Of a stretch of DNA of 58,876 nt, positions 19,858 through 58,532 are shown one piece after another (the stretch's first letter is position 1; the number at the start of each line of letters is the position of its first letter). The notes below the pieces were generated by a model. That model made no database searches and was not told the DNA's origin. It saw only the letters and a program-made list of their open reading frames with translations. The stretch spans positions 1 through 58,876 of IMG/VR virus record IMGVR_UViG_3300017706_000666, one strand, 5' to 3'. Position numbers and translations under genes: made by a program. Origin of the DNA: a virus (Duplodnaviria > Caudoviricetes).

Positions 19858-20256
19858 TTACGCTGTTTCAGAAATGTCCTCGTTCACCTTAAGTGTACCA
19901 TAAATCAAAGTAGCTACAGAACTGTCGGAAGCTGCTTTCTGCTCAATATCATAAACGTAAAGTCCAGCTGGCATAGTCTTCATAACGGTCGCAGCTACAG
20001 TGAAGTCAATATATTGTGCAGTGACGTCCGTGCCAGAAGCAGTAACGGTTGCAGTAAAGTTGGCACTACCGTTGCTCACCAGAGAACCGACATCGGAATT
20101 CCTTACCTCAAAAAGAAAAACATCATTCGCCGCGAAGCCAGCAGCATCACCCGCCGCGTTGGTAATAGTCAAGCGAAGAGAGAACGTGTCTCCCTTTCTA
20201 CAAGTAACATCCACTCTGGACGAAGTATCTAGATTGATTTTTGTTGCGTTACTCAT
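19858..20256 (-). CDS. Fibre adaptor/baseplate-like small beta protein
   Basis: KGDTF...AGLYVYDIEQ...LIYGTLKV pattern of BppU-like Ig domains. Confidence 0.55.
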   Translation of the reverse strand: MSNATKINLDTSSRVDVTCRKGDTFSLRLTITNAAGDAAGFAANDVFLFEVRNSDVGSLVSNGSANFTATVTASGTDVTAQYIDFTVAATVMKTMPAGLYVYDIEQKAASDSSVATLIYGTLKVNEDISETA

Positions 20257-22699
20257 CTCCTAGGATTTGATTCATGATATCATCGTTGGCTTCTGGCTCT
20301 CCTTGAATCTCACCCCTTTGACCCTTTCGTTGGGAGATGAGCTTGCTTTGTTCAACGGCTTGCTTCTGTACCCTTTGGTCCTTGCGGTCCTCCTTTAGTA
20401 CCTCAATCTTCTGTCTGAACTCTTTATCGTCAGCCTTAAATCCAAGGCTTGACTGAGCTCTAATCATTTCAATCTCTTTACGCATCTCGTGCATGGCTGC
20501 GGCAACTTGAACATCAACCTGCCCCTTGAGCTGCATCTTCTGTGCGTCAGCCTGAGCCTCCAATTGGATGCGCTGCATTTCCATCTGCGCTTTCTGCTGA
20601 GCCGCTTGAGTGTTCATCTGCGCCTGCATCTGAATATTCTGCTGCTGCTGCTGCTGCAACTTAGACATGCGCTTAGAGCGTCGAACAACTAGCAACCTTT
20701 GAGCTTGGTCAATGTCTTTTACCTGACGTACCGCCATGGCGTCCTCTAAGTCAATCTCTTTCTGTGCTAGACTAGCCTGAAGGTTTTGCTCCAAGAATAT
20801 TCTGTCGTCGTCTGACATTTCTTGAACCACTCGGATTCCGAAGTTGTACATGGGCAGCTCGTTAAAGCTGTTCAACACTTCCATGCTTTTTTCCCCGATA
20901 GCTTTTTCGTAAACCCGAAATAGAATTGACTCTTTAGGGATAACCTGCAAACACTTGACTATGTCTTCACAGACTCTCTTGTAGAGAACCATGCTCGCAT
21001 TTGTAATGTCGTATAGTGCGTTGTTGCCAGCGGCTAAGGCTTGCTGCCTCACCCCAACAAGTGCGTCACCTTTAGGAGTACTTGCATCCATCACCTCATT
21101 AATGCCAGTGGCATCTCGAATCATTCGTAGGTAGTGGTTGTACAGATTGATGTACTCGTTGATGTTTCTGATGCTGTTCTCGATTGAACGAATCGGAGGG
21201 TTTTGGAATCCACCTTCCGCGTTTTTACTCCTGTAATAAAAAACACCAGTCTGCTCGTAGATGTCTTGAATCTGTAATGGTTGCAGTTCTCCGCCCCTAC
21301 CTAATTGAACGTTCTCCAATCCTTCGATGTCCACCAACACACCGTCTGGCTTTGCCTTGGCAACGGCTTGCTGAATCTTCAGGTGAGTGAGTTGCAATTG
21401 GTCGGCGAATCCTATGATACCATTAACCATAGACTTCGGCATCATACGCCGGAGGTTTGTGCTAGCAACGCTGTAGGAAAGCCTTGCCTTGCTTAGGTCG
21501 TGTACATTCTTCGGGATATTCTTTTTCATCCCGTAGTTGTAAATCAACTCTGTGCCCATGATGTGGCATCCGCCATACACAGTCTGGTACTCCATCTTGT
21601 GAGCCTCCCTGTCGTATACAGAGCTCGTGGGCATCTTGTACTCGGAGCCCTTGAAGTAAAAACCAGTGTTTCCGTGCTTGCTCTCTTTGCTTTCGTAGTA
21701 AACGCAATCAACAGAAACAAACTCAAACTCCATGATATCAACCAAGTAATCATCGTAACCGAATGCATACTTCTGTCGAGTCTGGTCGTAAGTCTTGTAG
21801 TTGAACGCGCTGGCATTATTGTAGCTTTTGCTCTTGACAGAATTAGCTAGCTTCTCATACTCCGATTCAGGAATCTGGTCTCCAGCCTGACGCTTCAGCT
21901 CTTGAATACTGATGCGCTGGACGTGGGCACCGTAAACAATGTCAGACATGTTTGGGTCCTCCGTATAGCTATGGAGGAACATGGCTGGGTCAATATACTT
22001 TGTAGTGATTCCGTAGTTGGGGTCGTTGTCGCGCTTGGCTACAGCCATGCCACACACAACCAAATCTTCTACACATCTACGGTAGGTGTTCTGGTCAAAA
22101 TCATTCCAGTCCAGTGTCAACGCAGTGCCGAGCTGAGCAGCAATCTCTGCGTTTGTCTTCATGTTTTGCTCCATGAAGATTTCAGCCTCTTCCGTAGTGT
22201 CTGGTAAATCGTCGGGGTCAATCTTAGGTTGTAGGCCAAGCTGCTTTGCTTGTTGCAGTAGTTCCTTGTCCTTAATTGAAGCCTCTACTGTAGCGCGAGC
22301 CATGTCTTTCTCGTTTTTACTGACAGGGTCAAGTGCCTCCACAGAGGGGTAGGGCTTACGAGAAAGGATGCGATTGACTACGACCTTCACAAACTTGGGC
22401 ACGATAGGTACCGGGCTCCAGTCTAAGTTGAGTAGTGTCCCGTCCCCATTGTTTGGGTCGAGAGAGTTTAGGATTTGTTTGTAGATAGACGTGTCCTGAG
22501 TACCATTGGCATAGTCTCGGCTTTTGTCGAAATCGTACATACGGCGACGAAACAAGGATGTCTGGTCCGCGCCGTACCCCCACTGTGAGTTAATCGCCTT
22601 TGCAAAGAGGAGCCCGTATTTACTGGACACCTTTACTTCAGGAGACACAAACGGGTCGGGGAAACTTCCATACTTGTTATTTTTGTTCCCGTCGGTCAT
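20249..22699 (-). CDS. Portal protein (816 aa; start at ATG 22699)
   Basis: LNLDWSPVPIVPKFVKVVVN, IRDATGINE motifs, Q-rich C-terminal coiled coil; follows terminase. The promoter at 22723-22730 excludes the longer start. Confidence 0.85.
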   Translation of the reverse strand: MTDGNKNNKYGSFPDPFVSPEVKVSSKYGLLFAKAINSQWGYGADQTSLFRRRMYDFDKSRDYANGTQDTSIYKQILNSLDPNNGDGTLLNLDWSPVPIVPKFVKVVVNRILSRKPYPSVEALDPVSKNEKDMARATVEASIKDKELLQQAKQLGLQPKIDPDDLPDTTEEAEIFMEQNMKTNAEIAAQLGTALTLDWNDFDQNTYRRCVEDLVVCGMAVAKRDNDPNYGITTKYIDPAMFLHSYTEDPNMSDIVYGAHVQRISIQELKRQAGDQIPESEYEKLANSVKSKSYNNASAFNYKTYDQTRQKYAFGYDDYLVDIMEFEFVSVDCVYYESKESKHGNTGFYFKGSEYKMPTSSVYDREAHKMEYQTVYGGCHIMGTELIYNYGMKKNIPKNVHDLSKARLSYSVASTNLRRMMPKSMVNGIIGFADQLQLTHLKIQQAVAKAKPDGVLVDIEGLENVQLGRGGELQPLQIQDIYEQTGVFYYRSKNAEGGFQNPPIRSIENSIRNINEYINLYNHYLRMIRDATGINEVMDASTPKGDALVGVRQQALAAGNNALYDITNASMVLYKRVCEDIVKCLQVIPKESILFRVYEKAIGEKSMEVLNSFNELPMYNFGIRVVQEMSDDDRIFLEQNLQASLAQKEIDLEDAMAVRQVKDIDQAQRLLVVRRSKRMSKLQQQQQQNIQMQAQMNTQAAQQKAQMEMQRIQLEAQADAQKMQLKGQVDVQVAAAMHEMRKEIEMIRAQSSLGFKADDKEFRQKIEVLKEDRKDQRVQKQAVEQSKLISQRKGQRGEIQGEPEANDDIMNQILGDE

Positions 22700-22722
22700 A
22701 GAATAAAGTTTGGGCTCATTTG

Positions 22723-22730
22723 CAAATATA
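22723..22730 (-). promoter_or_regulatory. -7 promoter TATATTTG
   Basis: Consensus match upstream of portal. Confidence 0.65.
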
Positions 22731-22749
22731 GCAATAGTCCACAAGGCTT

Positions 22750-24855
22750 TTATACCTTATACCTCCTGAAGAATACTGTGTCTTCAAACGTCTTTTTCTT
22801 CTCCTTCGGCTTTACTTTTTGTGAGGCCAGCAGCGCTAATCCGGAGCTAATCGATAAGTCAAACTTGGTACGGTTGTCTATCTTGAACCCTATCCAGTCT
22901 TCTAACGTCCTGTTAAAATACATGGCTCCGGGGTGGCCGTCTTCATCTAGTCCGACGTAATTGTGTATGTAATCTTCTATGGCAGAAGCGTGAGCCTGAA
23001 TTACATCTTGTGAATTAGAGGGGATACCTTTTGTTCTTGAAGCGGACGAACCAGCCTTAAGGTGTTCCGGCCTGTCCATTACATACCCGTCGTAACCTCT
23101 TGATTCAAAGTACCTCACAATCCCATACTTGTTGTTCTCAATAAGAAGTGGGTATCCGTAAAACACAGCAGCCATTAAAACATCTTCATAGAATATGCTT
23201 GCCATAGGAGGGCGGCTAGCATACTCCGCGACAAACATATTTGAAGCCCCGTTGAGGTTGAACTTGTTGTAGATGTGACATGCCCCTTTAGATGACCTAC
23301 TATCAACCGTAGCGTCAAGGTCGTATGAGTCAACCCCACCACACCCCATTGAAGGATTCGGTGGAGTTCTCTTGCCCCGCTCCTCATGCATTACGCTGCG
23401 GCTTTTTTCGTCTGGCATCCAAGAGATATACCACCTGCCCTTAGGGTCTGGGTTAAAAAACACCTTCGTGTCCTTTACACCGCCTTGCCACTGAAAGTTT
23501 CCCCTGACAACAGGGTTTGGGTACATATACTCATTGTGCTCAATCTGCTCGTAAATCTTTCCTATGTTGAACAGACTGCCTTCAACGCTATCTCTAAAGG
23601 CTTCGTCAGGGGTGAAGGGGAACTGACGAATGATTTCATTCATCTCCCTCGCGTCGTGCTTTACCGCGTCTCTTTCGTTCTTGAGAAAAGACCTAGAGCC
23701 GATAGACATAGTGTCACCATCTAGAGTCTCTACAGCAGATTTAGGGTTCTCTACGATTGGATGTCCGTGCTTGTCAAAAAACCCTTCAAGGGAATCGTAT
23801 GCGGGTATGAATAGTCGGTACAGTCCAGATACGGTTCGACCGTTAGCATTTCTTTTTGTAGGGTTGGAATCTTTCCAGAGCTGCTTGTACTCCTTTCCCC
23901 CTTTGTCCATTGGGTTTACGGTACTACCTACCAGAGCCTTGCCAACAATCCTACGACCAACAATAAGACAAGTCCTTTCAATACGCCACGCCTCACGTAT
24001 GTCTGATGGTCGCTCCCACTTTCCCGCCTCGTCCATGTAGAGCATGTGGAGCTTCTCTCCGTCATACGCATTGTTCGTCGTGTTCTTCCAGTTGAGTACT
24101 GTGTTGAGCGCGTCACCTGCATTGGACGTCTTGTTATTCTTCGTGATTCTTTTGGATGGTTCGCGGAAAGCCAGCTCCATGCGCGGGTTAGTTGTACCAT
24201 CCTGAATTGGTTTGAAGAAGAACGGATAGTGCCTGAACATAGGCACCACCTTTTTCATGAAGATGTTTTCCTGTGCGTCCTTTCCCGTCTTTGATTGAAT
24301 GCCGAGAAGTTTGTCTTTGACCTGCGTAGCCTCGTCCAACAATACAGAAGCGCAGATATTAGTGTAACCAGAGCGGCGACACTTAGTATAAAGCTGCCCA
24401 ATACAGCGTGGGTCAACTTCACACGCAGCCATGTGAATAAAGATATCTCTTTGAAACGATAGAAATGACGGGTGCCCAATATCAATCTTAGTCCACTGGA
24501 GTAGCATGTAGTGCCTTCCGGTAACATACGTAGGCTTACCCGCGTTGTAAAACCAATAACCGTCACGACGCCTTCGAAACTCCTCCTCGATATATGGACG
24601 AAATCTCTCTCGAAACTCCTTCGGGGATTCGGCCCATTCGTCCATGCTTCGAATACGGGACAACTCTTCTGGCATAGGTACCCTGCCCCACACCTGCAAA
24701 TCTGTCGCCAGCCCTTCTCCTTGAACAGGTTCTTTGGGTTGTTCGGGAAGGCCAATGAAAAGCCCCCCAAGTTCGACGATGTCGCCAAGCGTACCGTTGG
24801 GACAAATCTTGACAACCTCTTCATCATAACCATCAATTTTTTCTAAGACACTCAT
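22750..24855 (-). CDS. terL: Terminase large subunit
   Basis: Walker A-like KCRRSGYT, Walker B LYMDEAGKW, GST coupling motif, nuclease GGVDSYD, LIENN. Confidence 0.92.
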   Translation of the reverse strand: MSVLEKIDGYDEEVVKICPNGTLGDIVELGGLFIGLPEQPKEPVQGEGLATDLQVWGRVPMPEELSRIRSMDEWAESPKEFRERFRPYIEEEFRRRRDGYWFYNAGKPTYVTGRHYMLLQWTKIDIGHPSFLSFQRDIFIHMAACEVDPRCIGQLYTKCRRSGYTNICASVLLDEATQVKDKLLGIQSKTGKDAQENIFMKKVVPMFRHYPFFFKPIQDGTTNPRMELAFREPSKRITKNNKTSNAGDALNTVLNWKNTTNNAYDGEKLHMLYMDEAGKWERPSDIREAWRIERTCLIVGRRIVGKALVGSTVNPMDKGGKEYKQLWKDSNPTKRNANGRTVSGLYRLFIPAYDSLEGFFDKHGHPIVENPKSAVETLDGDTMSIGSRSFLKNERDAVKHDAREMNEIIRQFPFTPDEAFRDSVEGSLFNIGKIYEQIEHNEYMYPNPVVRGNFQWQGGVKDTKVFFNPDPKGRWYISWMPDEKSRSVMHEERGKRTPPNPSMGCGGVDSYDLDATVDSRSSKGACHIYNKFNLNGASNMFVAEYASRPPMASIFYEDVLMAAVFYGYPLLIENNKYGIVRYFESRGYDGYVMDRPEHLKAGSSASRTKGIPSNSQDVIQAHASAIEDYIHNYVGLDEDGHPGAMYFNRTLEDWIGFKIDNRTKFDLSISSGLALLASQKVKPKEKKKTFEDTVFFRRYKV

Positions 24856-34390: not shown

Positions 34391-35317
34391 ATGAGCAAAG
34401 AGAAGCAAGACATCTACCAGAAAGTGACCGACCGCATCGTGGCTGGTCTCAACCAGAAGGGCCTCACATGGTTCCGTCCATGGACCTCCAACGGAATGAC
34501 GGGCCCCATCAACAACTCCACCGGGCGGTCCTACAAAGGCATCAACGTCCTCCTGTTGTGCGCCGAGGTTGTGGAGCATGGCTACGAACACAACGAGTGG
34601 GTCACGTACAAGCAGGCCGCTGCCAAAGGGGGCAACGTCAAGAAGGGTTCCCAGTCCACCTTCATTGTGTTCTGGAACATCATTTACAAGTGCGTTGACA
34701 GCGGCAAGACGTACCGCAAGTTGCAGGACGTGCCCGTGGGGATGCGCTACACAAAGCTGTTCTTCCCCCGCGCCTTCAACGTCTTCAACATCGACCAGTG
34801 CGAAGGGTTGGAGCCACGCCGGGAGAAGGTAGAGGTCACCGGAGAGTTCAACCCGATTGAGCAGGCCGAGAGCATCTACAAGGAGCAGTACCCCAAGGAG
34901 ATGCGCCCTACGTTGGCTCATGGCGGCGACAGCGCGTTCTACGTGCCCAGCAAGCACCACGTGCAAATGCCGAAGCAGGAGACCTTCGTGAGCAGTGACG
35001 ACTACTACAAGGTGCTGTTCCACGAGTTGGTCCACAGCACAGGCCACGAGACCATCCTCAAGCGCTTGGACAAGGTTGCCGCCTTCGGAGGCGATGCCTA
35101 CAGCAAGGAGGAGTTGGTTGCTGAGATTGGAGCCCAGTTCCTTGTGGGTCTGACAGGCATCCAGCCCAAAGACGACGAGACCAACAGCCAAGCCTACATC
35201 AACGGCTGGGTCAAGAAGCTACAGGACCAACCTAAGATGGCTCTGAGCGCCGCAAACAAGGCCATGAAAGCCGTGGACTTCATCACCGGGGAGGGAGCAG
35301 ACGCTCCTTCCTCATAA
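34391..35317 (+). CDS. ardC: ArdC-like antirestriction protein (ssDNA-binding ArdC-N + zincin metallopeptidase domain)
   Basis: IYQKVTDRIV..L....W.RPW, GRSYKGIN, WVTYKQA..KGGNVKKG, FNVFNIDQ, HELVHSTGH, YSKEELVAEIGA. Confidence 0.92.
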   Translation: MSKEKQDIYQKVTDRIVAGLNQKGLTWFRPWTSNGMTGPINNSTGRSYKGINVLLLCAEVVEHGYEHNEWVTYKQAAAKGGNVKKGSQSTFIVFWNIIYKCVDSGKTYRKLQDVPVGMRYTKLFFPRAFNVFNIDQCEGLEPRREKVEVTGEFNPIEQAESIYKEQYPKEMRPTLAHGGDSAFYVPSKHHVQMPKQETFVSSDDYYKVLFHELVHSTGHETILKRLDKVAAFGGDAYSKEELVAEIGAQFLVGLTGIQPKDDETNSQAYINGWVKKLQDQPKMALSAANKAMKAVDFITGEGADAPSS

Positions 35318-47595: not shown

Positions 47596-47730
47596 TTAGC
47601 CACTACAAGACTCGCAGTCCTCTGGCTTCTCAATGTTGCAGGTGATTTCACCAGATTCAATTTTTGCTTCTGACTCCTTGAGTTTCTTAGGGTCGAGAAA
47701 GCTGATGTCAAAATCTTCTTCGGGTCTCAT
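47596..47730 (-). CDS. 44-aa peptide ending in C-x6-DCESCSG (not in ORF track)
   Basis: MRPEEDFDISFLDPKKLKESEAKIESGEITCNIEKPEDCESCSG; ATGA overlap with the holin stop. Confidence 0.65.
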   Translation of the reverse strand: MRPEEDFDISFLDPKKLKESEAKIESGEITCNIEKPEDCESCSG

Positions 47731-48167
47731 CTCTTCTTGGATTTTTCAATAGTTCGCCCTGCAAAGTAAGCACCAAATGAGGTAAGCATAAGTATCTCAA
47801 GCAGAGAAACATAGCTGTCCTTTACATTGAACGGTAGGTTGTCCATTGAGTCCAGCACCATTGTCACAACGAACATTCCCATGAGCGCAATGAGAGTCAC
47901 CGGACGGATGTACTTAGCCAGCTTCACGTCGCTACCCATGTCAGCCTTCCAACGCTCAGTCACGTTGTTCTGGTAGGCAATCTCTGCATCGACACGTGCC
48001 TTAGCCTCCTCAGGGGAGACGTTCGGTTCCTTGTCAAGCAGGTTCTTTACCATGCCGAGTGCCCCGCTATCTGGAAGCAAGTCACCCACCGTATCCAGCA
48101 CGTTGGGCGCGGCTTTAGCAAGCCAACGACCTAGCCCGGTGTCTTTGATTTTCTTTTTCTCAGCCAT
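47727..48167 (-). CDS. Holin (3TM-type, GTA holin-like)
   Basis: VTERWKADM.SD..LAKYIRP, hydrophobic helices, AYFAGRTIEK. Confidence 0.75.
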   Translation of the reverse strand: MAEKKKIKDTGLGRWLAKAAPNVLDTVGDLLPDSGALGMVKNLLDKEPNVSPEEAKARVDAEIAYQNNVTERWKADMGSDVKLAKYIRPVTLIALMGMFVVTMVLDSMDNLPFNVKDSYVSLLEILMLTSFGAYFAGRTIEKSKKR

Positions 48168-48630
48168 CGTAATCTGTGTATGTGATTGTACAGTCCTCAC
48201 ATTGTAACGCCTCAGCAATGAGAGGGTAAACCCTTTTGTATGCATCTGTAGAACCGCTTACGTATCCTGTTGACGTAACGTTCTGCGTCTGACTGTTGCC
48301 GAGCAAGAGGCATCCGCTCGTGTCGCCTTCATCGTTTCCGCAATGAATAAGGATGTGCTTGAAGTTGGGTACATCCAGAACCTCAATCATTCCCTTGTGC
48401 ATCTCACCGAATCTCTTGGTGTATCTGTCGTGATACCCACCCCAAGTCTTTAGCCTTAGGTTGTAGGTACCCGCCGGGATTCTTGTCTCGTGCATCACCT
48501 TCTCTTCCCTGTCTTCGTCCTCAAGCGTGAAGCACAAGAACTCACGGAACTCTGTACCGTTGCTCGCGTCGAACAACAGGCCCAACGTATCCCGCTCCTG
48601 ACTACTGAATCTTATTACCTCTAGCTTCAT
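48160..48630 (-). CDS. DUF5675-family putative endolysin
   Basis: CFTLED, RIPAGTY, VPNFKHILIHCGN, DTSGCLLLG; adjacent holin. Confidence 0.8.
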   Translation of the reverse strand: MKLEVIRFSSQERDTLGLLFDASNGTEFREFLCFTLEDEDREEKVMHETRIPAGTYNLRLKTWGGYHDRYTKRFGEMHKGMIEVLDVPNFKHILIHCGNDEGDTSGCLLLGNSQTQNVTSTGYVSGSTDAYKRVYPLIAEALQCEDCTITYTDYDG

Positions 48631-51600
48631 TCTTCTAGTGCTTCTAAGTAGATGTCGGTCTCAATCTTTGCTGGCTCAAGCATCCCGAAGTATACCCGTG
48701 ACATATCCTCCAGCTCCTTGTAGTCTTGGGGGCTCATGGTCTTGGCCTTGGCTCTCATCAAGACGTAGTAGTCTCTGCTGTTCTTGACACGCTTCTGAAT
48801 CTCTCTAAGCTCAGCGATGTGTTTCTTGTAGGTGTCTGGAAAACGCTTACGCATTGCCGTCTCAGCGATGGGTTGGTTGAATCCCTTGGAGAAGGCATTG
48901 GCAACTTGCTCAGCCTTGAGTGGGTCCGCACCCGCGTCCTCCATTAGCTTCAGGAACCTAGCGCGTCCACCCTTTTCATCAATGCTCTTGACGGCCTCAA
49001 AGAACTGAGAGTCACCGTCAGCGAGGGCTTGAGCTACCACCTCGTATGCCGCCAAGTCCTCTTCCCCTCCGAGGGCCCTAGCCCTACCAACGTTGTCAAG
49101 AGTCTTGATGAACTGCTCAGCCTCCTTGTTTCCGAATCCAATTAGGTTGCCACCAGTCATGGCTAGCCTGAGGTAGTAGTACATCGCCATGTTTGCCTTG
49201 TCCTCAGGACGGACGAAGTATTCTCTACCTGTAGATGTAATCACTTTGTTGCTACCACTGGCAAGGCTGATGACGTTAATCATCGTGTTGTGGCTTTCGC
49301 TAAGGAACTGACCGTATGGACCGATGTATGAGAGCATAGTCATTGGGTCACCGGGTTCCGTTCTGGTTCCGTAGATAGGCACACCACCCTTGACTGAAGC
49401 CCATCTCTCGTAGCGTTCGTCGTAGGTCTCGTCTCCGATTCCGAAGTTGTCCTCTTCAAGCATCGGGAAGATGAGGAACTTGTTGACCGCAAATCTCATG
49501 CTGTTGTCGATGGCCGCAAGCGGGAGCTGAGGAAGCATGTCAACCAGAGTTGATGTACCCACATCCCACCATGCTTTCGTCTTATCTTCTTCTGTCAGTT
49601 GGTCTTCGTCGTCTCCGAAGATGGCAGAGACAACAGCAGGCAATAGAATCTTACCCACCGCGTGGAACGTAGCAAGCTCAGCCACACTACCAACAAGAGC
49701 CTTGCCGCCTTCACCTTTAGCTCTGGCGTTTCCGTATAGGACTTTCTTTGCGTCAGAGACAATACTCCTCTTCTTGTTTACTGCGAACCTAGAGAACGGC
49801 AACAGGAAATTCTGCAACAGGTATGCCAACTGCGGAGCGAACTCCGTACCACCAGCGTACAGGTCAGCCGCCTGTCTTGGGGTAGAAGCAGCTTGGTCTT
49901 TGGTGACCAGAGAGTCTGCATAGCTCAGTGCTTCCTTGTTTGGTCTCACTGCCTGCTCCTCCCAGTCGATGTCACTTACGCTGTCCACAACACCCTGCTC
50001 GATAAGAGAGTCTGCGTAGAATCCAAACCACGAAGCAATCGCAACTACCTTGTCCGTGCCCTTGAGGTTTTTGAGCGCGAGCTTGTTTAGGTAATCTGTC
50101 ATCTTCTGAAACTGCGTAGCGTCAAAGTCCATAGACCCAGTGAACGGGTCGATGTTACCTGCTTCGTAGTCTCTGCTGAACACGGGCGAGTTCTGCAACA
50201 ATCTGTACCTGCCGTTATTATCCAGTGCAATCTTAGAGTCAGCCATAAAGAGACCCTTCCCGCTGTGGTAAACCATCTCGGCTACAGTCTGCAAGACGTA
50301 AGGGAATGTCTTCAGTGGATTCTTCGCTTGGAAGAACGTGTTCAAGATTACTGGAGACTGCTTAGCCGTCTGAATCAAGAAGCCGCCAAACGCTCTGGTA
50401 ATCGTAGCCAGTCTGACAACGTACCCCGGATTCTCGAAACGTTTACCAAACAAGACAAAGTCTTTCTGGAACATAGCGGGAACCTTACCCGTGTCTTGGT
50501 GTACGTACTTGGCAATCTTCCGCTCCAAGGTTTGCTTCACCGTGGTATTTGGAATCAGGTCGTTTGCCTCTTGTGAGTTCATCACAAATCTGTGTGCCAG
50601 CGTAGAGCCGACAGTCTCCATCAGTGTGATGTTCTCTCGCAACGTAGACTCGTTAACCTTGAGGAAGTCAAGACCAATAATTGCCTTGTCTCCAGACAAC
50701 GACCTTGGGTTACGCTCAAAGCTACTGCCTGCCGCCTTCTTGGTCTGTGATAGTGACGACTCCTGAAGAGCCTTGTGAAAGCCCTCGTACATACGCATCG
50801 TCTCATTGGTAGACTCATTCTTGGTCTGGATACGCACGTCAAACGGAGTGTAGTTTTCCTCCATGACAAGCTCCTTACCGAGGTAACGCTCTACGTAGTT
50901 AGAGAACTGCGGCATCAGACCCACGTGCATGTCAACCAAGAAGTCTACCATCTGAACCAGCTCAGGATTAGTTGACCTAACCTTGGCCTGCAACTCCTCC
51001 AAGCTGTTGGTGCCCGCAAAGAGAAAGTCGTATGCGCTTTCCATCTGAGCAATCTCTTCCTTTGAGAACGCACCACCCGCTGCTACTTTCTGCTGGTTGT
51101 GGTACTCGATAGTACGCTGCATCACGCCCTTGAGGTTGACGAACCACTCGGCAGCATTTTGTCCGGCCTGTGTCTCGTTGTCAATCTCAGGAACCTGACG
51201 GCTCATTGAGAAGATTTGCATGATGGCCTTCTCCCGGACACCAGTAATCTTTTTCTTGCTCCGTCTCTCTAGCTCAAGCACTTTTGCCTCAAGCCTCTCC
51301 ATCAGCATGGAGTGTCTGAAGTCAGCACGTCCAAACGCACCCTCGATAGAACCAAAGCCTAGCGAACGACGAAGTCTCGCAAGCGTAATGTCTGTGGTTG
51401 GAAACGCATTTCGGATGTACGAATCCACAGTATCCAAGAAGCCCATGTAAACTCTGGGTCTTGCCTTGAGGCCACCTCTCTTCAGGTCAGCCAAGTCACT
51501 GGCGTAATCGATAGAGCCACGGACAAGAGAGTGTACGTACCCAAGCCCGAATACAGAGCCGTTGACGATGAAGTCGTCGAGCTTGTAGTCTAGGTGAGCT

Positions 51601-54600
51601 AGCTGTCTTCTGTTGAGCTTCAGGAGTCTGTTCCTCAGGTCTGCGAAGTTGAGCTTCGATGGGTCTGCGATACCGAGGATGTCGGCAATCATTGGTTCCT
51701 CAAGCAGTGTGTCAAGGTTCGCTGCAATACGGGGCAGCATCACGTCGTCTACGATGAGCTCAGCGGCAGCCTCGTTCTTGTTGACCTTCTCGTCATACAA
51801 CGCTTCGAGCACACGCTCAAGGTGAGCTGGGTTGCTGCTGTCGAGCTGGTCGTTTGCATTGTTCTTATTCCACTCGTCGATGTAGCGAAGGATGTTCTTT
51901 CTGTTCTGCGACAGCTTGCTTCTCTCGTACTTCTCCTTGAGCTTGTTGTACTCCTCGTCAACACTGGTCTTGTTCTTGAGTGCAAGTCTCTCCGCTCTGG
52001 CGGCAAGCACTGCGTTTCTTCCAAGCGTTTCTTTTGACTGGAACTGGGCAACCAATACAGCGAGGTCCTCAGCTGGTAGCTTGGGGAACGACACTGCCTC
52101 CTTACCGTCCTCACCCTTTTTGATTTGAGGAGCTTTCATTGAGCTCAGGGTGGCAAGCACAGTCTGTTCGAAGTTGCTGATGTCGTCCGCATCCAACAGC
52201 GCGGGGTTAATCTTAGACAGGGACTCCGCGTACTTGTTGTAAGTAGCTGTAGACTTGAGGGCCTCGCCTGCCTTCCTTGGCTTGGCAGCACGAGCTAGTC
52301 TCTTTTGCAATCCACGCACTCGATTCACTTGGTCGAGATACTCCTGCATAGCCTTCTTGGTATCTCTCGCATCAAAGACAGCAGACAGCTTGTCGATGAA
52401 CGTCTGCATAACCTCGAAGCCTTCCTCCTTCAGTCTCTTACCAGAGACACGGTGAGCCTCCCTAGCAATCTTAAATAGCTGTTGCACCTGAGCACTGCTG
52501 AAGGGTGTCTTTGCGTTGTCCTTCATACGCTCTTTGACAATCTCGATTGCCTGCTTCAGGAACTCCCTGTAGTTGCTCGACTTATCTCTCAGCTGTTCGA
52601 GGTCTGCTCTCAGATTCTTAGCTTCGGTGCTGAGCTTGCGAACCTTCTTGTTGACCTCCTTCTTTCCGATAAGTCTGCCGCGCTTGAACTCGTATGCTCT
52701 TCGGTACGCCGCCAATGCAGCCTCCTTTGTCATACCCATGTCCTGCAACAGCTTCAGGATTTCGGGCTTGGCATACGCCATCGTAGCCATCTGACCGATA
52801 GATGCCTCCAGCCTTACTGGAATCTTTCTACGCTTGTCACGCTTAATAGTTGGGTTGCTGTATTCCTTATCTAAGAAGTCAGCAATCTGACGAGTCAGGT
52901 CACCTTGAAACTTTACTTCCCCGGATACATCCCCTGCACTACGGCTAGTTCCTCCCCCTCTAGTTCCTTCCCGTCCAGAAGCTCCACCGCTTCTATCCAC
53001 GTCTCTAGATTCGGGCTGCTCTCTGCCAATCTTGGATACGGCGTCCCGAATAGCGGGAGCCCAATCCGGCGTTCCAATTCCGCCTGCTTCTTTGAGAAGC
53101 CCTTGTCTAAGTTGCTCTCTTGTAATTTCTGCATTTCTATACTTGGTATGAAGTGATTGAATCCTTGACTTATTTGCCTCGCTGTTCTTAAATCCAGCGG
53201 TATAGAGAAGCCTGACAGCCTCCCACGTAATGCTTTGCATCTCTCTTGGAAGCAAGCCTCGTTCATCAGCGGCAATCCTGTATGCTTCAAGATAAGCATA
53301 ATAGTTACCGGAAATAGCGTGAACTGACGAATTAGAAACTTTTAACTCAGCGAATCCTTTCTTCAGGGCCCAAGGTTTCCAGTCTGCAACGCCCTTTACT
53401 TTTATACCAGCTGCTTTGGCTAGATTGGCGACCTCTTTTCCCCCGTAAACAACACCGTTCTTGTCTATGAAGGTGCCCCCAGTTGCTCCGAAGTTAGCTC
53501 CGACCTCCCCAGAAGAGGAAGACATGGGCTTGAGGAGGGCTGCTCCTACAGCGTGAGTATCAATGGTGGTGTCTGAGCCAAATCCGGGGTTGTGGATGTT
53601 GTTGAAGAAGTGTCGAATCTTGTGCTGCTCACCAAGCACCCTAGAAATCTCAGCTACATCTTCGGTAAGCAGGGCCGAAACAGCCTTGTCAATCATAGTC
53701 AAGGAAGACCAAGCGGCCCTAGACTCCTTGCCTTGTGCGTTTGTCTTCTTACCTCCCCGCTCCCCGCTCGGTGTAATGATATCGTAAGACCTAGACATGT
53801 TCAGGTCAACAAAGGCCCACACAGCCATGGCTCTGACATTTCCCGGAGGGAGCTCAACAATAGAAGTACCGACGTACTTAGACAGCTCTCTAGCCCACGC
53901 AACTTTTGCACCCCCTTCATTCATGAAGAAGTCTACCATCTCTTGCGTGACTGGCTTATTGCCATTGTTAACCACAGCTTCGATGACCACCTCTCCAAGT
54001 CTGACGTTTTGATACCAGTCCTTTTGAGGGGACAGGGCAGCAATGGCTGCCGCAACCTGAATCGGGTCAATGTCGTACTCCTCCGCCAGTTGCTGGGCAA
54101 TAATGTTGGCACCATCGTACCAAAGTGTAGCGACCTCCCTTAGGTCTGCCTCGAACGCATCGTGAAGGAAGAGCAGGTTGTTCTTTGCTTCCTCAATAAA
54201 GATATCGTACACCTCATCAGCGTACTTCATTGCGTTTTTACCCTCGAAAACAGACTTCCTAAACTTTCTTACGCCTGCAACGATGTCAAGTTGAGACAAA
54301 AAGAGCGCGTTCTTGACGTAGATTTTAGGCTCGTTTTCTTTTACGTGAGCCAGACTAAGTATGTAACTGTCATCTAGCTTAGATGATTTTGCAGTACCAT
54401 ACCCTTGACCAATTCTAGTCCCTTTAATCGTTTGCTTTTTGATTGACCGAGCAAACTCGCCCATCAACTTGGGCCCGAACTTAGGGTCGTTCTCTGGACT
54501 AGGCTCAGCGAGGGCGTCTTGGAACTTGATAGGCACCCCTTCTGGGGTGGTCTTGCCAGTGTCAAACATTGGGTCTGAAGGCAGGACCTTCTTCGTGTCC

Positions 54601-57600
54601 TTAGCAAGAACTAGCGCACCAATTTGAATCAGCTCGCTAGCCTCAGTAACAGGCATTCCATCACGCTTGTCGTAAAACCAGCTGTGCCTATAGGGATTCA
54701 TACCAACCTGAACCCAACCCTCCTGAACACCCTCAGACTTGTGGTCTTTGTGGTACTCTTTAGAGGCCATGATTTCCTCTGCTTTTGCCTTGATGGTTGC
54801 GGGGTTGTGGTTAACCCAGTCGCCAAACATCCTAGCTATCGTGGTTTTGTTTGTCTTGGTTGCAATACTTAGTGACCCGACAGGACTACCTCCGAACGTA
54901 ACGCCTTTGATTACCCCAGTCTGTGAATAGGCTACAGGCTTTCCGCTGTTGTCACCAATTCTTTTTGCAAAAGATGAGGCGGTCTTGTTACCCTCGTGAA
55001 CAGAGGCAACCCAGACGTCGTAAACATTGTATGCAGGAATATCCAATCTCAATCCGACAAAGTACCCGTCTGGCAACTCCTTGTTAAGGTCATAGATACC
55101 TGTTTCTAACTGCTTGCTCTTTAGAGCCGCTCCAATTTCTGACAACGAAGGCATATCAGGAACCACGTCGAAGGGAGTAATAGGCATGACATCTCTCACC
55201 ACTTCGATGTATTGTTCCTGTGTGAGGGTGCCTTCTTTCATAGCTTCAATAGCAGCTACATTTTCAGGAACTCTGTCAAGTCGTTGATTCCTTTCGAGTT
55301 TTAACTCTTCCTTGAGTTTGATGAGCTGTTCTTCTGTTAGGTTGGCTGTGCTCAAGAAGCTCTCTAAACCAGCACCTACTCTTAGGCCCTCGTCAAGTTG
55401 ACCTTGGAACTTCACGTCCTCGTCGTCAGCAACCTGACGCTCCTCAGGCTTGAGTCCAAGTCTTTCACTCGACTGGGTGAGCTGGGATACAGCTTCCGTC
55501 ACGTCCTCACCAGAGGCCATCTTACCTGTGAGGTTTTCGATAGCACGTCCAACGTCTGAAATACCGGGGTTTGGAATTTTGCCTACAAACGGAACGGCAC
55601 TGAGGCCACGGTTGATGAGACCTGAGAACCGTTCAATCAGTCCACGCTTTACTTCAAGACTCAAGTTGCCTGCCGTGATGTCAGCCAAGAGCTCCGTCAA
55701 GAACTCGTCTGCAAAAGCAGTAGACTGCATGAGCTTGAGGATGTCCGTCTCCTTTGTGCCGTCGATACCCAACGCAGTTAGTTGCTCCTGTACCTTCTGG
55801 CTTTGGAGGACCTTGCTCAGGTACTTGCCGAACTTGTTGGCTACACCCTCGCCCTGAAGCGACTTAGCCAACTCTGTAGCCAGACCAACGAGAGCGTCGT
55901 CACCCAGCAAGGTGTCGATACCTAGCTCGTGGTAACCTTCGTGGTAAGCAGTGTTCTCAAGGATGGCGGGAACGAGGAGGTGAATCTTGTATCCACCGTC
56001 CTGTTGCTTGGCAACAAACACACCACGTCCGACCTTACCACCGGGCACAGCGTTAGCCATGGACGCGACGGTCTTATGAATCATGATACCTTTGAAACCC
56101 TTCTTCGTTTTGCTCAGGGCTTTGACGGCAGTAATAGTGTTTCTCAGTCCATCCATGACGGCTTGAGGCGACGAGATTCTACCCAACCCAAGTGGGAGGT
56201 TCAACGCCATCTTGTCCAACAACAGATTGTTGATTCTGTCGAGAACGCTGTCTGCGTTTGCTCCGTCTACAACGACACTGTCCTGCCCTTCAAAGAGACT
56301 ATCAAGACTGTACTCCTCCAGAACTCTGGAGACGTTGTCCATGATTTGGTTTGTGCTAGTACGAGACCCCAAGTCGTGAGTGATGTCGAGGTCTCCCTCT
56401 AGTTTCGCTCGCTGCTTTACCAAACTGTTGACCTCATTGCGAAGTCTTCTGCGCTGGCTCTTGTTTTCGGTACGGTCGTAGTCAATTGCCTTCTTGGTAA
56501 TCTGTGTCTGAACATCAATCAAAGCGGAGTAAGCCTCCGGGTCTGACTGTCTAAGCTGCTCGTAGAAATCCCTACGCTTCTTGCCCTCTGATTCGTCACG
56601 CTGGATAGCACCAACAAGACGAGCCATAACCTCTCGGCGACCAGACACAGTCTCCTGAGAGTCAAGTTCTTTTTTAAGCTGTTGAATTACCAGCTTGGAT
56701 TGGATGGATGGGATTGAGCTCGCTGCTAGGCCAAGCGCACCAATACTACTACCAGCCCCTGCGATACCACCACCCATTACGGCACCTGCATAGAAGCCAT
56801 TCTTGATGGCCTTATCCATTTGGACAACATCAATGTCCTGACCCTTTGCGTTTTGCTCAATGACGTACTGCATACCGCCTGTAACGGCTTCAGTCAATGC
56901 CTCTTCCCCCATAGCTAAGGGGGTGTTCATGAGCGCACCATAGATGAAGTCAGCAGCACCCTTTGAGTTTGCTCTTAGAGCCTTAAATCGGTCAAAGATT
57001 TTAGCCCCAACGAATGCGGGTGCGCCTTCAGCAACGCCGTAGCCGAGGATAAATCCACCCTGCTGGACCACGTTCATCTTATCAAACCATTCCTCGTCAC
57101 GGGCGATGTCATACGCAGTAAGCGAGCCCATCCCAGACACCACACCAGCCGTCAACTTGCTGTTACCCGTCAGGCGCTGCGTAACAATAGCAGCAGCCAT
57201 CATTGGTACACTGTGACCGAAGTCAGCAACAACGTCCGACATACCCCCTGACCAGTCGCCGTTCTCGAACTTACTGGCTGGGTCTGTCTGAGGCACAGCT
57301 CTGTATCTCTCGATGGACTGCTCAAGATTCTTTGCAGCCATACGATGCATGTTAGTGACAGTCCTGCCATAGGCCCACTCTCCAAACACCGCCTCTACCG
57401 CATTTACACCAAGGTCCATGCTAGCAGACTGCAATGTGCCCACCAGTTTTACAACCTCTGAACCTAGACCACGAAAGAAATCAGCACTAACATTACGACC
57501 TTCGGATGTATCACCGATGTAGCCTGTGTTATTGAGGTCAGCCATGATGTCGTACTCCTCAAGGAGGTGACGCTCAAGATTCTTAACCTTCTCCTCGTCA

Positions 57601-58532
57601 GACAAGAACTCTGCATCAAGAGTTCCCTTGACGGCGTCGTTCGTACTGTCGTTAACCTCTGTCATTAGACGCGCCTTGGCAGCAGCCAGTCGTCTTTGAT
57701 AGTACTGCTCCTTCGCCGACTCCTTAAAGGTTTGATTCTTTTCTTGAATCTGTTCCTCACTAAGGCCAGCCAGTGACTCTGCACCCTCAAGTATCTCTTG
57801 ACCAAACGCAGTGTAGACGGGGTTTCCTGTAGCACCCATGGCAGCAAAGCCTCTACCTCGACCGTCTTGAGAGACGTTGTCTGCAATTGCATCTGGCCTT
57901 CCCATTTGGAGGTCACTGGCAAACGCATTGTCAGAGCCCTTCAAGAGTTCCTCTAAAACCGCGTCGTCGTTGTACGGATTACGTTGGTTGCCCTCTTCGT
58001 CTTCTCCAGTACGAGACTTGATAGAAGCCATGAGAGACGCATTCATCATGCGTTGCTCCTCCGAGCTGGCGTTTCTCCACCGTTGTGCCGCAGCAGGTCT
58101 ACCAGTTGCTTCGTAGTACCTGTCGGCATTGAAATTGATGTCGAAGTAGTTCTCTAACGAACTCTGGTACGCACCCGTGTAAGCAGTAATTGCATTTGCG
58201 TCCTCCTTTGTAATCTCCTTGCCGTCGTAGAGGTAGGAGGTAAGTATCTCACCTTGGTTACGCTCGTTGTATCTGTCGATACTCTCCTGAGAGTACGGGT
58301 CAACTATGTCTATGCTCGGAACTGTACCCGAACCTCCAGACGCTTCTGTCGAAGAGACACCGATATTCGAGGTAGATTCCGTAGAAACCTCTTGAACCAA
58401 AGGAGAATCCGAGACGGAAGTCTTTTCTTTTTTTTTTTGACCGTAGTAATCGTTTATGATTTTACGGACCTCTGCTCTGCTTGCACCTCCTTGGATTGCC
58501 GCATCAACAAGTGCTTTCAGTTCTGGCTCCAT
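48627..58532 (-). CDS. Giant (3301 aa) internal virion / polyvalent protein: hydrophobic N-region, zincin HEGYH domain, two KFQ-bounded cassettes (one HhH-glycosylase-like), helical C-region
   Basis: HEGYH at 55929-55943 with downstream DEFLTE; KFQ at 55404-55412, 54519-54527 and 52905-52913; WY..AALSPQ..W..N, KIRHFFNNI, TIDTHA, MQSITW. Confidence 0.8.
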   Translation of the reverse strand: MEPELKALVDAAIQGGASRAEVRKIINDYYGQKKKEKTSVSDSPLVQEVSTESTSNIGVSSTEASGGSGTVPSIDIVDPYSQESIDRYNERNQGEILTSYLYDGKEITKEDANAITAYTGAYQSSLENYFDINFNADRYYEATGRPAAAQRWRNASSEEQRMMNASLMASIKSRTGEDEEGNQRNPYNDDAVLEELLKGSDNAFASDLQMGRPDAIADNVSQDGRGRGFAAMGATGNPVYTAFGQEILEGAESLAGLSEEQIQEKNQTFKESAKEQYYQRRLAAAKARLMTEVNDSTNDAVKGTLDAEFLSDEEKVKNLERHLLEEYDIMADLNNTGYIGDTSEGRNVSADFFRGLGSEVVKLVGTLQSASMDLGVNAVEAVFGEWAYGRTVTNMHRMAAKNLEQSIERYRAVPQTDPASKFENGDWSGGMSDVVADFGHSVPMMAAAIVTQRLTGNSKLTAGVVSGMGSLTAYDIARDEEWFDKMNVVQQGGFILGYGVAEGAPAFVGAKIFDRFKALRANSKGAADFIYGALMNTPLAMGEEALTEAVTGGMQYVIEQNAKGQDIDVVQMDKAIKNGFYAGAVMGGGIAGAGSSIGALGLAASSIPSIQSKLVIQQLKKELDSQETVSGRREVMARLVGAIQRDESEGKKRRDFYEQLRQSDPEAYSALIDVQTQITKKAIDYDRTENKSQRRRLRNEVNSLVKQRAKLEGDLDITHDLGSRTSTNQIMDNVSRVLEEYSLDSLFEGQDSVVVDGANADSVLDRINNLLLDKMALNLPLGLGRISSPQAVMDGLRNTITAVKALSKTKKGFKGIMIHKTVASMANAVPGGKVGRGVFVAKQQDGGYKIHLLVPAILENTAYHEGYHELGIDTLLGDDALVGLATELAKSLQGEGVANKFGKYLSKVLQSQKVQEQLTALGIDGTKETDILKLMQSTAFADEFLTELLADITAGNLSLEVKRGLIERFSGLINRGLSAVPFVGKIPNPGISDVGRAIENLTGKMASGEDVTEAVSQLTQSSERLGLKPEERQVADDEDVKFQGQLDEGLRVGAGLESFLSTANLTEEQLIKLKEELKLERNQRLDRVPENVAAIEAMKEGTLTQEQYIEVVRDVMPITPFDVVPDMPSLSEIGAALKSKQLETGIYDLNKELPDGYFVGLRLDIPAYNVYDVWVASVHEGNKTASSFAKRIGDNSGKPVAYSQTGVIKGVTFGGSPVGSLSIATKTNKTTIARMFGDWVNHNPATIKAKAEEIMASKEYHKDHKSEGVQEGWVQVGMNPYRHSWFYDKRDGMPVTEASELIQIGALVLAKDTKKVLPSDPMFDTGKTTPEGVPIKFQDALAEPSPENDPKFGPKLMGEFARSIKKQTIKGTRIGQGYGTAKSSKLDDSYILSLAHVKENEPKIYVKNALFLSQLDIVAGVRKFRKSVFEGKNAMKYADEVYDIFIEEAKNNLLFLHDAFEADLREVATLWYDGANIIAQQLAEEYDIDPIQVAAAIAALSPQKDWYQNVRLGEVVIEAVVNNGNKPVTQEMVDFFMNEGGAKVAWARELSKYVGTSIVELPPGNVRAMAVWAFVDLNMSRSYDIITPSGERGGKKTNAQGKESRAAWSSLTMIDKAVSALLTEDVAEISRVLGEQHKIRHFFNNIHNPGFGSDTTIDTHAVGAALLKPMSSSSGEVGANFGATGGTFIDKNGVVYGGKEVANLAKAAGIKVKGVADWKPWALKKGFAELKVSNSSVHAISGNYYAYLEAYRIAADERGLLPREMQSITWEAVRLLYTAGFKNSEANKSRIQSLHTKYRNAEITREQLRQGLLKEAGGIGTPDWAPAIRDAVSKIGREQPESRDVDRSGGASGREGTRGGGTSRSAGDVSGEVKFQGDLTRQIADFLDKEYSNPTIKRDKRRKIPVRLEASIGQMATMAYAKPEILKLLQDMGMTKEAALAAYRRAYEFKRGRLIGKKEVNKKVRKLSTEAKNLRADLEQLRDKSSNYREFLKQAIEIVKERMKDNAKTPFSSAQVQQLFKIAREAHRVSGKRLKEEGFEVMQTFIDKLSAVFDARDTKKAMQEYLDQVNRVRGLQKRLARAAKPRKAGEALKSTATYNKYAESLSKINPALLDADDISNFEQTVLATLSSMKAPQIKKGEDGKEAVSFPKLPAEDLAVLVAQFQSKETLGRNAVLAARAERLALKNKTSVDEEYNKLKEKYERSKLSQNRKNILRYIDEWNKNNANDQLDSSNPAHLERVLEALYDEKVNKNEAAAELIVDDVMLPRIAANLDTLLEEPMIADILGIADPSKLNFADLRNRLLKLNRRQLAHLDYKLDDFIVNGSVFGLGYVHSLVRGSIDYASDLADLKRGGLKARPRVYMGFLDTVDSYIRNAFPTTDITLARLRRSLGFGSIEGAFGRADFRHSMLMERLEAKVLELERRSKKKITGVREKAIMQIFSMSRQVPEIDNETQAGQNAAEWFVNLKGVMQRTIEYHNQQKVAAGGAFSKEEIAQMESAYDFLFAGTNSLEELQAKVRSTNPELVQMVDFLVDMHVGLMPQFSNYVERYLGKELVMEENYTPFDVRIQTKNESTNETMRMYEGFHKALQESSLSQTKKAAGSSFERNPRSLSGDKAIIGLDFLKVNESTLRENITLMETVGSTLAHRFVMNSQEANDLIPNTTVKQTLERKIAKYVHQDTGKVPAMFQKDFVLFGKRFENPGYVVRLATITRAFGGFLIQTAKQSPVILNTFFQAKNPLKTFPYVLQTVAEMVYHSGKGLFMADSKIALDNNGRYRLLQNSPVFSRDYEAGNIDPFTGSMDFDATQFQKMTDYLNKLALKNLKGTDKVVAIASWFGFYADSLIEQGVVDSVSDIDWEEQAVRPNKEALSYADSLVTKDQAASTPRQAADLYAGGTEFAPQLAYLLQNFLLPFSRFAVNKKRSIVSDAKKVLYGNARAKGEGGKALVGSVAELATFHAVGKILLPAVVSAIFGDDEDQLTEEDKTKAWWDVGTSTLVDMLPQLPLAAIDNSMRFAVNKFLIFPMLEEDNFGIGDETYDERYERWASVKGGVPIYGTRTEPGDPMTMLSYIGPYGQFLSESHNTMINVISLASGSNKVITSTGREYFVRPEDKANMAMYYYLRLAMTGGNLIGFGNKEAEQFIKTLDNVGRARALGGEEDLAAYEVVAQALADGDSQFFEAVKSIDEKGGRARFLKLMEDAGADPLKAEQVANAFSKGFNQPIAETAMRKRFPDTYKKHIAELREIQKRVKNSRDYYVLMRAKAKTMSPQDYKELEDMSRVYFGMLEPAKIETDIYLEALEE

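Follow-up and report, generated by a model that had tools for sequence, protein, structure and literature searches.

A conserved K-x-Q signature at the module seams of a giant polyvalent-type phage protein: candidate processing sites in a podophage related to Elemovirus

The virus record IMGVR_UViG_3300017706_000666 is complete, with a length of 58,876 bp and direct terminal repeats of 123 bp, and the whole of it is referred to here as the window. It is the 58.9-kb genome of a podophage related to Flavobacterium Elemovirus. One of its open reading frames (ORFs), P0001, encodes a giant polypeptide that consists of an N module with an HExxH motif, a first slot that is empty in this phage, a module with an L5-gp82-like domain, a second slot filled by a DUF7178 cassette, and a C module (Table 1). 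As one very large polypeptide of at least four modules, in which two slots vary, P0001 is by its sequence best filed with the polyvalent proteins. Comparison with its homologues establishes at the sequence level a set of short motifs, their conservation at module seams throughout the family, the swapping of modules at these seams, and the existence of relatives of polyvalent type. The conserved element of the seams is a K-x-Q triplet, which we tentatively read as a processing site.

The initial annotation of the gene had picked out HEGYH from amino acid (aa) 864, DEFLTE from aa 942 and three copies of [V/I]KFQ at K1041, K1336 and K1874, and all of them were recovered at these residues. The three copies delimit two segments of 290 and 533 aa, which had been estimated at about 295 and 540 aa. 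A disordered linker was said to precede each copy. This is the case for K1041, where aa 1026-1040 are predicted to be disordered with a predicted local distance difference test (pLDDT) score below 50, and for K1874, which follows a Gly/Ser/Arg stretch of low complexity, but not for K1336, which is preceded by the moderately confident tail of a domain (pLDDT 86, then 64) whose P-I-K forms a strand in the model. The N module begins with low-complexity sequence and contains hydrophobic segments rich in Gly and Ala at about aa 440-620, with a hydrophobic window at aa 584-607. In the slot-2 cassette, K-K-Q at aa 1365-1367 may be an extra site, and the C module contains a hydrophobic segment at aa 2945-2974.

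Table 1. Parts of the giant ORF P0001 and other genes of the window discussed in the text (nt, nucleotides).
Feature	Residues or size	Position (nt)	Strand	Remarks
Giant ORF P0001, polyvalent-type	3301 aa	48627..58532	-	Closes the late structural operon as its last large gene
N module	aa 1-1039	55416..58532	-	Conserved with group-A homologues up to q1041-1044
Putative zincin domain	~aa 790-980			Inside the N module; hidden Markov model (HMM) built from alignment A2 matches 94/373 collected proteins
HEGYH (HExxH)	aa 864-868	55929..55943	-	
DEFLTE	aa 942-947	55692..55709	-	E943 or E947 candidate third metal ligand
J1/J1b, VKFQG	aa 1040-1044	55401..55415	-	End of the N module and empty slot 1
Constant (middle) module	aa 1045-1334	54531..55400	-	Helical N-part and L5-gp82-like alpha/beta domain
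J2, IKFQD	aa 1335-1339	54516..54530	-	Tail of the gp82-like module
Slot-2 cassette, DUF7178	aa 1340-1872	52917..54515	-	PF23802
J3, VKFQG	aa 1873-1877	52902..52916	-	Start of the C module
C module	aa 1878-3301 (1,424 aa)	48630..52901	-	Conserved; mostly helical by eye
Internal K-D-Q	aa 2878-2880	49893..49901	-	In the C module, block V-T-K-D-Q-A-A-S-T-P
Holin		47727..48245		Downstream of the giant ORF
ORF across the record ends	718 aa	starts 1942, runs through the 123-bp terminal repeat, stops 58539	-	No family match
Very large gene	1737 aa	2839-8052	-	aa 1-350 phrog_14478 'virion structural protein' (2.5e-106); last 240 aa phrog_18548, unnamed
Portal		20249..22744	-	Family match
Terminase large subunit		22750..24855	-	Family match
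Protein with GroES/Cpn10 domain	194 aa	25129-25713	-	Domain in the C-terminal half (9.7e-08)
Protein with CHU_C domain	400 aa	31892-33094	-	C-terminal type IX secretion sorting domain (7.6e-13)
ArdC-like gene		34391-35317	+	Pfam match: ArdcN (1.3e-29) and MPTase-PolyVal (2.1e-30)

A homologue search with aa 780-1400 as the query returned 207 proteins of 1,815-5,777 aa at E ≤ 0.001, 120 of which are listed. Among the matches listed, five are >79% identical over the whole length, about sixty share the N, middle and C modules at 25-68% identity, and the rest share the middle module only. The homologues carry the Pfam domains ART-PolyVal, LPD23, LPD38, LPD3, Helicase_C, ResIII, glucosaminidase and DUF3293, and this agrees with the polyvalent type assumed in the initial annotation. 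Seam conservation was read from a 30-row alignment (A2) with 29 full-length homologues, which are 25-99% identical to P0001 over a 301-aa segment of the zincin region. K-x-Q was found at the end of the N module (J1) in 24 of these 29 homologues, before the middle module (J1b) in all 29, after the middle module (J2) in 26, with Q alone kept in 29, and at the start of the C module (J3) in 28, with G after Q in 24. Two secondary sites, about 20 aa beyond J2 (J2b) and about 10 aa before the C module (J3a), have the triplet in 18/29 and 10/29, respectively. At J3, both K and Q are present in 28/29 vs. 5-17/29 for the columns of the preceding linker, and a similar contrast is seen at the other seams.

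The middle position of the triplet varies. Of 135 seam instances, 70 have A there, 28 have F, 10 have S and 8 have P; Q is followed by G in 43 of them, by A in 28 and by K in 16. KFQ itself is present in 85 of the 120 listed homologues, in quite different local contexts; those lacking it read VKYQG, IRYQG, VKSQG, AKAQG, AKSQG and similar at the aligned positions. Because the aligned seams show K-x-Q with x being mostly Ala, [V/I]KFQ is a local dialect of the seam signature, that is, its Phe lineage variant. The repeated [V/I]KFQ of the initial annotation does recur at seams, but what the homologues conserve is K-x-Q.

Within P0001 alone the recurrence is not significant, because, in a search over all 4-mers, three or more copies of a 4-mer just as rare are found in 174 of 1000 shuffles of the protein; it is real only through the homologues. 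The composition of P0001 predicts 0.045 copies of [VI]KFQ, and four 4-mers are seen three times, namely [VI]KFQ and three others, against an average of 5.2 in the shuffles. The longer pattern Phi-[KR]-x-Q-[GD] occurs three times in the giant ORF and is absent from the 13,130 aa of 37 other listed ORFs.

Module boundaries cluster at the same positions. When P0001 was compared with its homologues, 141 of the 346 internal endpoints of high-scoring segment pairs in q900-2000 fell within 6 aa of a motif Q, vs. 3.5% expected if they were uniform, with peaks at q1044, q1055, q1338 (33), q1341 (36), q1869 and q1874. In an all-vs-all BLAST of 121 proteins, where the counts are non-independent since the proteins are related, 8928 of 35264 internal endpoints (25.3%) lay within 6 aa of K.Q as compared to 4.5% at random. 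For [VIM][KR][FY]Q the proportions were 14.8% and 0.43%. The control motifs revealed no comparable excess: 4.4 vs. 3.9% for Q.K, 8.4 vs. 7.1% for K.E and 10.2 vs. 10.2% for A.A. The expectation that homologues would swap modules at the motifs is therefore borne out by the alignments, with domain boundaries clustering there.

The two segments between the motifs behave differently in this comparison. The initial annotation had taken both for plug-in cassettes, a view that fails for the first one, which turned out to be a constant module of 281-309 aa between the motif columns in all 29 aligned homologues. The C module is also constant, the length after J3 being 1412-1452 aa in 27/29. Variation is confined to the slots. 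Slot 1 measures 16-360 aa and has three unrelated contents, with inserts of 186-360 aa in relatives. Slot 2 holds DUF7178 in 9/29 and an unrelated cassette of 391-442 aa in 20/29. The DUF7178 cassettes measure 526-543 aa except for an outlier of 185 aa in P0064, a homologue of 2475 aa that also has a short C-terminal module.

The HExxH region is probably a zincin of the gluzincin type, as judged from its motifs and predicted topology. H864, E865, H868, E943, L945 and E947 are invariant in the 30 rows of A2. The model of the region (mean pLDDT 71.9) has the order H50-70, E74-80, E99-103, E109-114, H122-131 and H199-215; HEGYH lies on predicted helix 122-131 after three strands, and E943/E947 lie on predicted helix 199-215 (model numbering). 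According to Iyer et al. (PMC5512222), the zincin core comprises an N-terminal helix, a three-stranded sheet and two catalytic helices, an order that the P0001 prediction matches. The nearest language-model neighbours of aa 780-1000 are clusters with 18-20% LPD23 members (scores 0.95-0.96), which is a lead only.

The middle module was modelled by AlphaFold 2 (AF2) with mean pLDDT 85.8 and a predicted template modelling score of 0.86. Its similarity to Phage_L5_gp82 (PF25735) is sub-threshold in P0001 (14.9 bits vs. a cut-off of 27), four of the 13 homologues scanned match the family, and many database relatives of the module are pre-annotated as Phage_L5_gp82. A Foldseek search of the PDB with the model gave nothing at E ≤ 0.001. 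In BFVD, the same model has 15 matches at E ≤ 0.001; most are uncultured-phage proteins with several domains, in which the partners are ART-PolyVal-like, zeta-toxin, lysozyme-type (LT_GEWL, phage tail lysozyme) and PcfJ-like domains; gp82-like small proteins of Bacillus, Mycobacterium and Streptomyces phages were also found. That the gp82-like domain might be a known protease was considered and rejected, with no fold match in the PDB and only uncharacterised phage proteins in BFVD. Stand-alone gp82-like proteins end in Phi-[KR]-F-x-x-G-G, and since they too end in Phi-K-F, this part of J2 belongs to the gp82-like domain. Among the short gp82-like relatives P0263-P0373, many show this ending and some extend into Gly-Gly-rich tails with D-P-V-S-G-N-[DE]-V-P, which by sequence looks like a separate conserved C-terminal signal.

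The slot-2 cassette matches DUF7178 with 79.1 bits (cut-off 27). In 30 aligned rows this domain has invariant W, Y, D, H and R and Q-S-x-T-W-E positions. A search of the PDB with the DUF7178 alignment profile gave nothing meaningful, and the literature searched does not mention the domain. The C module has no match in cultured phages, the PDB or NCBIfam. It was considered as a virion RNA polymerase of the crAss type, a candidate rejected since P0001 lacks the D-x-D-x-D motif. Away from the module seams, strong conservation of K-x-Q is seen solely for the internal K-D-Q of the C module (28/29), which could be either a further site or unrelated. In tblastn searches of cultured phages, nothing was found for the N and C modules at E ≤ 1e-5, and only the two cassettes have matches, in 6 records. 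A megablast search with the giant gene gave no match, and 50,697 phage records contain no near match to this uncultured phage.

On the minus strand, the giant gene forms one continuous series with the terminase, portal and structural genes, through the terminal repeat. The stop of the 718-aa ORF lies seven bases upstream of it, and a 156-aa ORF and the holin gene lie downstream; given this ORF directly in front and these two behind, the giant gene closes the late structural operon. In its C-terminal part, the 718-aa ORF has a low-complexity stretch rich in Pro, Thr and Ala and then an acidic tail. The window has matches to several 'virion structural protein' families, including a 487-aa putative capsid protein and the 1737-aa protein, and a primase/helicase gene was identified as well. 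No prohead or head protease family was found among the ORFs of the window scanned against the family libraries. Relatives of the terminase large subunit occur in Flavobacterium Elemovirus (42% identity), Cellulophaga phages and crAss-like phages. Together with the type IX secretion sorting domain of the 400-aa protein, these relatives indicate a Bacteroidota host, and the sorting domain itself suggests that this phage protein may be exported by the type IX secretion system of the host. The ArdC-like gene belongs to a replication block on the opposite strand, with a G+C content of 0.54-0.55 at 34-38 kb vs. about 0.47 elsewhere; its product has 3938 similar proteins at E ≤ 0.001, several of them on contigs of about 55-60 kb. 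A GroES-like domain protein is encoded near the terminase, and Elemovirus too has GroES-like and GroEL genes beside its terminase gene.

Several known systems resemble P0001 in part. Polyvalent proteins as described by Iyer et al. (PMC5512222) are likewise giant multi-domain phage proteins with HExxH, and relatives of P0001 combine the same kinds of domains (ART-PolyVal, LPD, helicase, methylase and lysozyme-type). P0001 differs in that it matches no Pfam PolyVal or LPD model, its only Pfam similarities being DUF7178 and the weak one to L5 gp82, and in that its HExxH domain is not recognised by MPTase-PolyVal. The authors proposed that polyvalent proteins are delivered with the DNA and autoprocessed by their MPTase domains; no mention of a junction or cleavage motif was found in the main text of their article. 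No description of the seam motif was found in full-text literature searches. KFQ was also tried as a general motif of polyvalent proteins and rejected: it is not enriched in 140 DUF7178-bearing representatives, being present in 19 of them with 22 copies in total and ranking 4285 among tripeptides.

The closest counterpart in position is gp18 of the Elemovirus vB_FspP_elemoE_6-9C (NC_055854.1), a 3694-aa 'structural protein; DUF3293' encoded at the same end of the structural operon in a podophage of about 60 kb. Its HExxH domain falls in the same clade (HMM, whole protein 3e-15, best domain 3.4e-15) and reads HEIFH at aa 1543; S-R-F-Q-A follows about 85 aa past this domain. Upstream of HExxH, gp18 (L005 2852-13936) contains two copies of K-[TA]-Q-E-D-A-V-Q-K-Q, at aa 1085-1094 and 1217-1226, which are 132 aa apart. 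Unlike P0001, it has no gp82-like domain, and it shows no BLAST similarity to the N and C modules at E ≤ 1e-5. Judged by title and abstract, none of the papers found to mention Elemovirus deals with a gp18-type protein.

Another comparison, drawn by description, is with gp47 of the Stx phage phi24B (bioRxiv 10.64898/2026.04.10.717836). This large polyvalent protein of 2811 aa carries LPD5, LPD1, LPD38 and a MuF-C metallopeptidase, is abundant in the podophage particles and invisible in the reconstruction, and was proposed to be an ejected internal protein. Its domain families differ from those of P0001, and the preprint's account of gp47 reports no processing of it. P1 DdrB and the N4 virion RNA polymerase (vRNAP) are similar in being head-internal MPTase proteins delivered at infection, the former being processed before packaging and the latter packaged whole (PMC5512222). 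They differ from P0001 in that the polymerase motif D-x-D-x-D is absent from it, and the summary of them in that article defines no cleavage sites.

A more distant parallel comes from polyproteins of positive-strand RNA viruses. These are cut after Gln by 3C-type proteases, which are chymotrypsin-fold cysteine proteases, at sites such as LEVLFQ/GP and ENLYFQ/G. E-V-K-F-Q-G of P0001 is similar in that Gln is followed by a small residue at a seam, a functional analogy at most. No chymotrypsin-fold protease was present among the Foldseek matches of the gp82-like and HExxH-region models.

Taken with the genomic position, the data point to the following reading. P0001 would be a polyprotein of the polyvalent class which is made late, packed into the capsid and delivered together with the DNA. 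Each seam carries K-x-Q, usually followed by Gly, Ala or Asp; cleavage at these triplets would release the modules as separate proteins, and the likeliest protease would be the HExxH domain of the same polypeptide. We infer the packaging and the cleavage, as well as the bond that would be cut and the enzyme cutting it. The HExxH domain is the first candidate because the sites are found only here, no head protease was detected, and MPTase autoprocessing has been proposed for this class of proteins. For the same reason, the sites being private to the ORF and no prohead protease family having been found, processing in cis fits better than a general head protease. With the sites located in the seams, cassettes could be exchanged between phages with processing left intact. 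That K-x-Q marks the processing sites of a modular polyprotein, probably cut in cis by the HExxH domain, is a sequence-based proposal to which we give somewhat less than an even chance. Its full form is more doubtful: all modules of a capsid-delivered protein of about 360 kDa would be bounded by K-x-Q and cut apart by its own metalloprotease either before packaging or after ejection, so that one gene would yield at least four proteins with pluggable cassettes.

A number of observations weigh against this proposal. First, no cleavage product has been observed for P0001 or any relative, and P0001 contains 11 K.Q in total, approximately the number expected from composition. Second, the zincin assignment has the HExxH motif, the invariant E943/E947 and a fitting predicted topology on its side, but no Pfam, PDB or profile match. 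Pfam gave no hit at E ≤ 1 in the HExxH region and no MPTase-PolyVal (PF18818) there, the latter was absent from the 13 homologues scanned, and NCBIfam had no match for P0001. A profile search of the PDB with the whole-family alignment gave nothing meaningful. A Foldseek search of the PDB with the HExxH model, whose pLDDT is 71.9, gave nothing at E ≤ 0.001 (best E 0.44), the metallopeptidases 7z6s and 4l7a appearing only at E 0.55-1.2. The hhalign comparison with the phage's own ArdC-type MPTase-PolyVal family gave a probability of 0.8% and paired only the DEFLTE segment with the EELVAE helix of the ArdC-type MPTase, which is not significant. Third, six giants that have the gp82-like domain and lack HExxH keep Phi-[KR]-F-[QS] after this domain. 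These are P0075, P0082 and P0093, together with P0066, P0067 and P0070; the last three align with P0001 from the gp82-like module onwards and may be truncated at the N-terminus. Fourth, N4 vRNAP, ArdC and TraC1 possess MPTase domains yet are delivered unprocessed (PMC5512222).

The remaining difficulties also support the strongest rival, in which nothing is cut and K-x-Q is a structural or docking element at the module edges of a single chain. It would be, for example, a strand or cap packed against the adjacent domain, or a short linear motif for binding to the portal, capsid or a chaperone, and swaps would occur there since seams tolerate recombination. Phi-[KR]-F of J2 is the conserved tail of stand-alone gp82-like proteins that lack HExxH, and in the AF2 model J2 forms a strand (P-I-K) that lies on the domain (pLDDT about 64). 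K-x-Q-G of J3 is continuous with the conserved start of the C module and for this reason could be a mere domain edge. K-D-Q, which is kept in 28/29, lies within a conserved block of the C module and not at a seam. The packaging of N4 vRNAP in unprocessed form points the same way. What speaks against a purely structural role is that the same triplet is found at four to six seams adjoining unrelated domains, and that the stretches flanking J1 on both sides and following J2 are of low confidence or disordered. In addition, Gln is kept in the giants and not in the stand-alone gp82-like proteins: it follows the Phi-K-F tail in 75 of the 78 giants matched by the zincin HMM and in 2 of the 72 short HExxH-less proteins, a contrast confounded by phylogeny. 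On balance, we regard the absence of cleavage as rather unlikely.

Cleavage of K-x-Q by a different protease seems unlikelier still. The candidates are an unrecognised head-maturation protease, the ArdC-type MPTase, a host protease, and the gp82-like domain acting in cis on its own tail. The six HExxH-less giants fit this explanation, as does the fixed distance at which the motif always stands behind the gp82-like domain. That domain has its own conserved polar residues, with R121, D123, Y127 and K188 invariant and H138, R241 and S243 at ≥90% (numbering of alignment A1). Moreover, the genome has a bona fide MPTase-PolyVal gene, and several structural ORFs are without family assignment. However, no PDB entry, protease or otherwise, was matched by the gp82-like fold, and the ArdC-like gene sits in the replication block of the opposite strand. 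The motif is also absent from all 37 other ORFs, among them the portal and the putative capsid protein, which are the usual targets of a head protease.

A recombination joint at the DNA level, that is, a short shared nucleotide sequence guiding cassette exchange, is highly improbable. The cassette boundaries do coincide with the motif, and third-position G+C (GC3) of the two segments is 0.490 and 0.495 as compared to 0.543 in the N module and 0.627 in the C module. The initial annotation had seen the cassettes as more A/T-ending than their surroundings, which is correct for the pooled flanks but not for the first ~600 codons, where GC3 is equally low. No more than 10 nt are common to the three motif sites, and these simply encode K-F-Q; the middle residue is free across the family. 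The relatives L002 and L003 switch between AAG and AAA, TTT and TTC, and CAA and CAG at the motifs; as these codon changes between close relatives are synonymous, selection acts on the peptide, and the joint suggested by the initial annotation finds no basis in the DNA.

Lys and Gln are the cross-link substrates of transglutaminase chemistry, so the two invariant residues in flexible segments might be isopeptide partners linking copies of P0001 with one another or with the inside of the capsid, a match of substrates that is this idea's only support; with no transglutaminase-like domain in any family scan made and, to our knowledge, no precedent in phage internal proteins, it can hardly be credited.

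Few unexplained proteins of phages and plasmids are larger or more common than the polyvalent proteins. Their autoprocessing by MPTase domains has been proposed since 2017, with the cleavage site left undefined in the main text of the article concerned (PMC5512222), and a short family-wide seam motif makes this proposal experimentally simple to test. If K-x-Q is not cut, it would still be a marker of module boundaries in a marine flavobacterial-type podophage group. If the processing of P0001 at K-x-Q is real, it would be a phage analogue of the polyprotein processing of RNA viruses and would provide a standardised 'socket' for new effector cassettes. In that case, the signature would also serve as a predictable cleavage code by which thousands of polyvalent proteins could be parsed, giant metagenomic ORFs split and acquired cassettes spotted.

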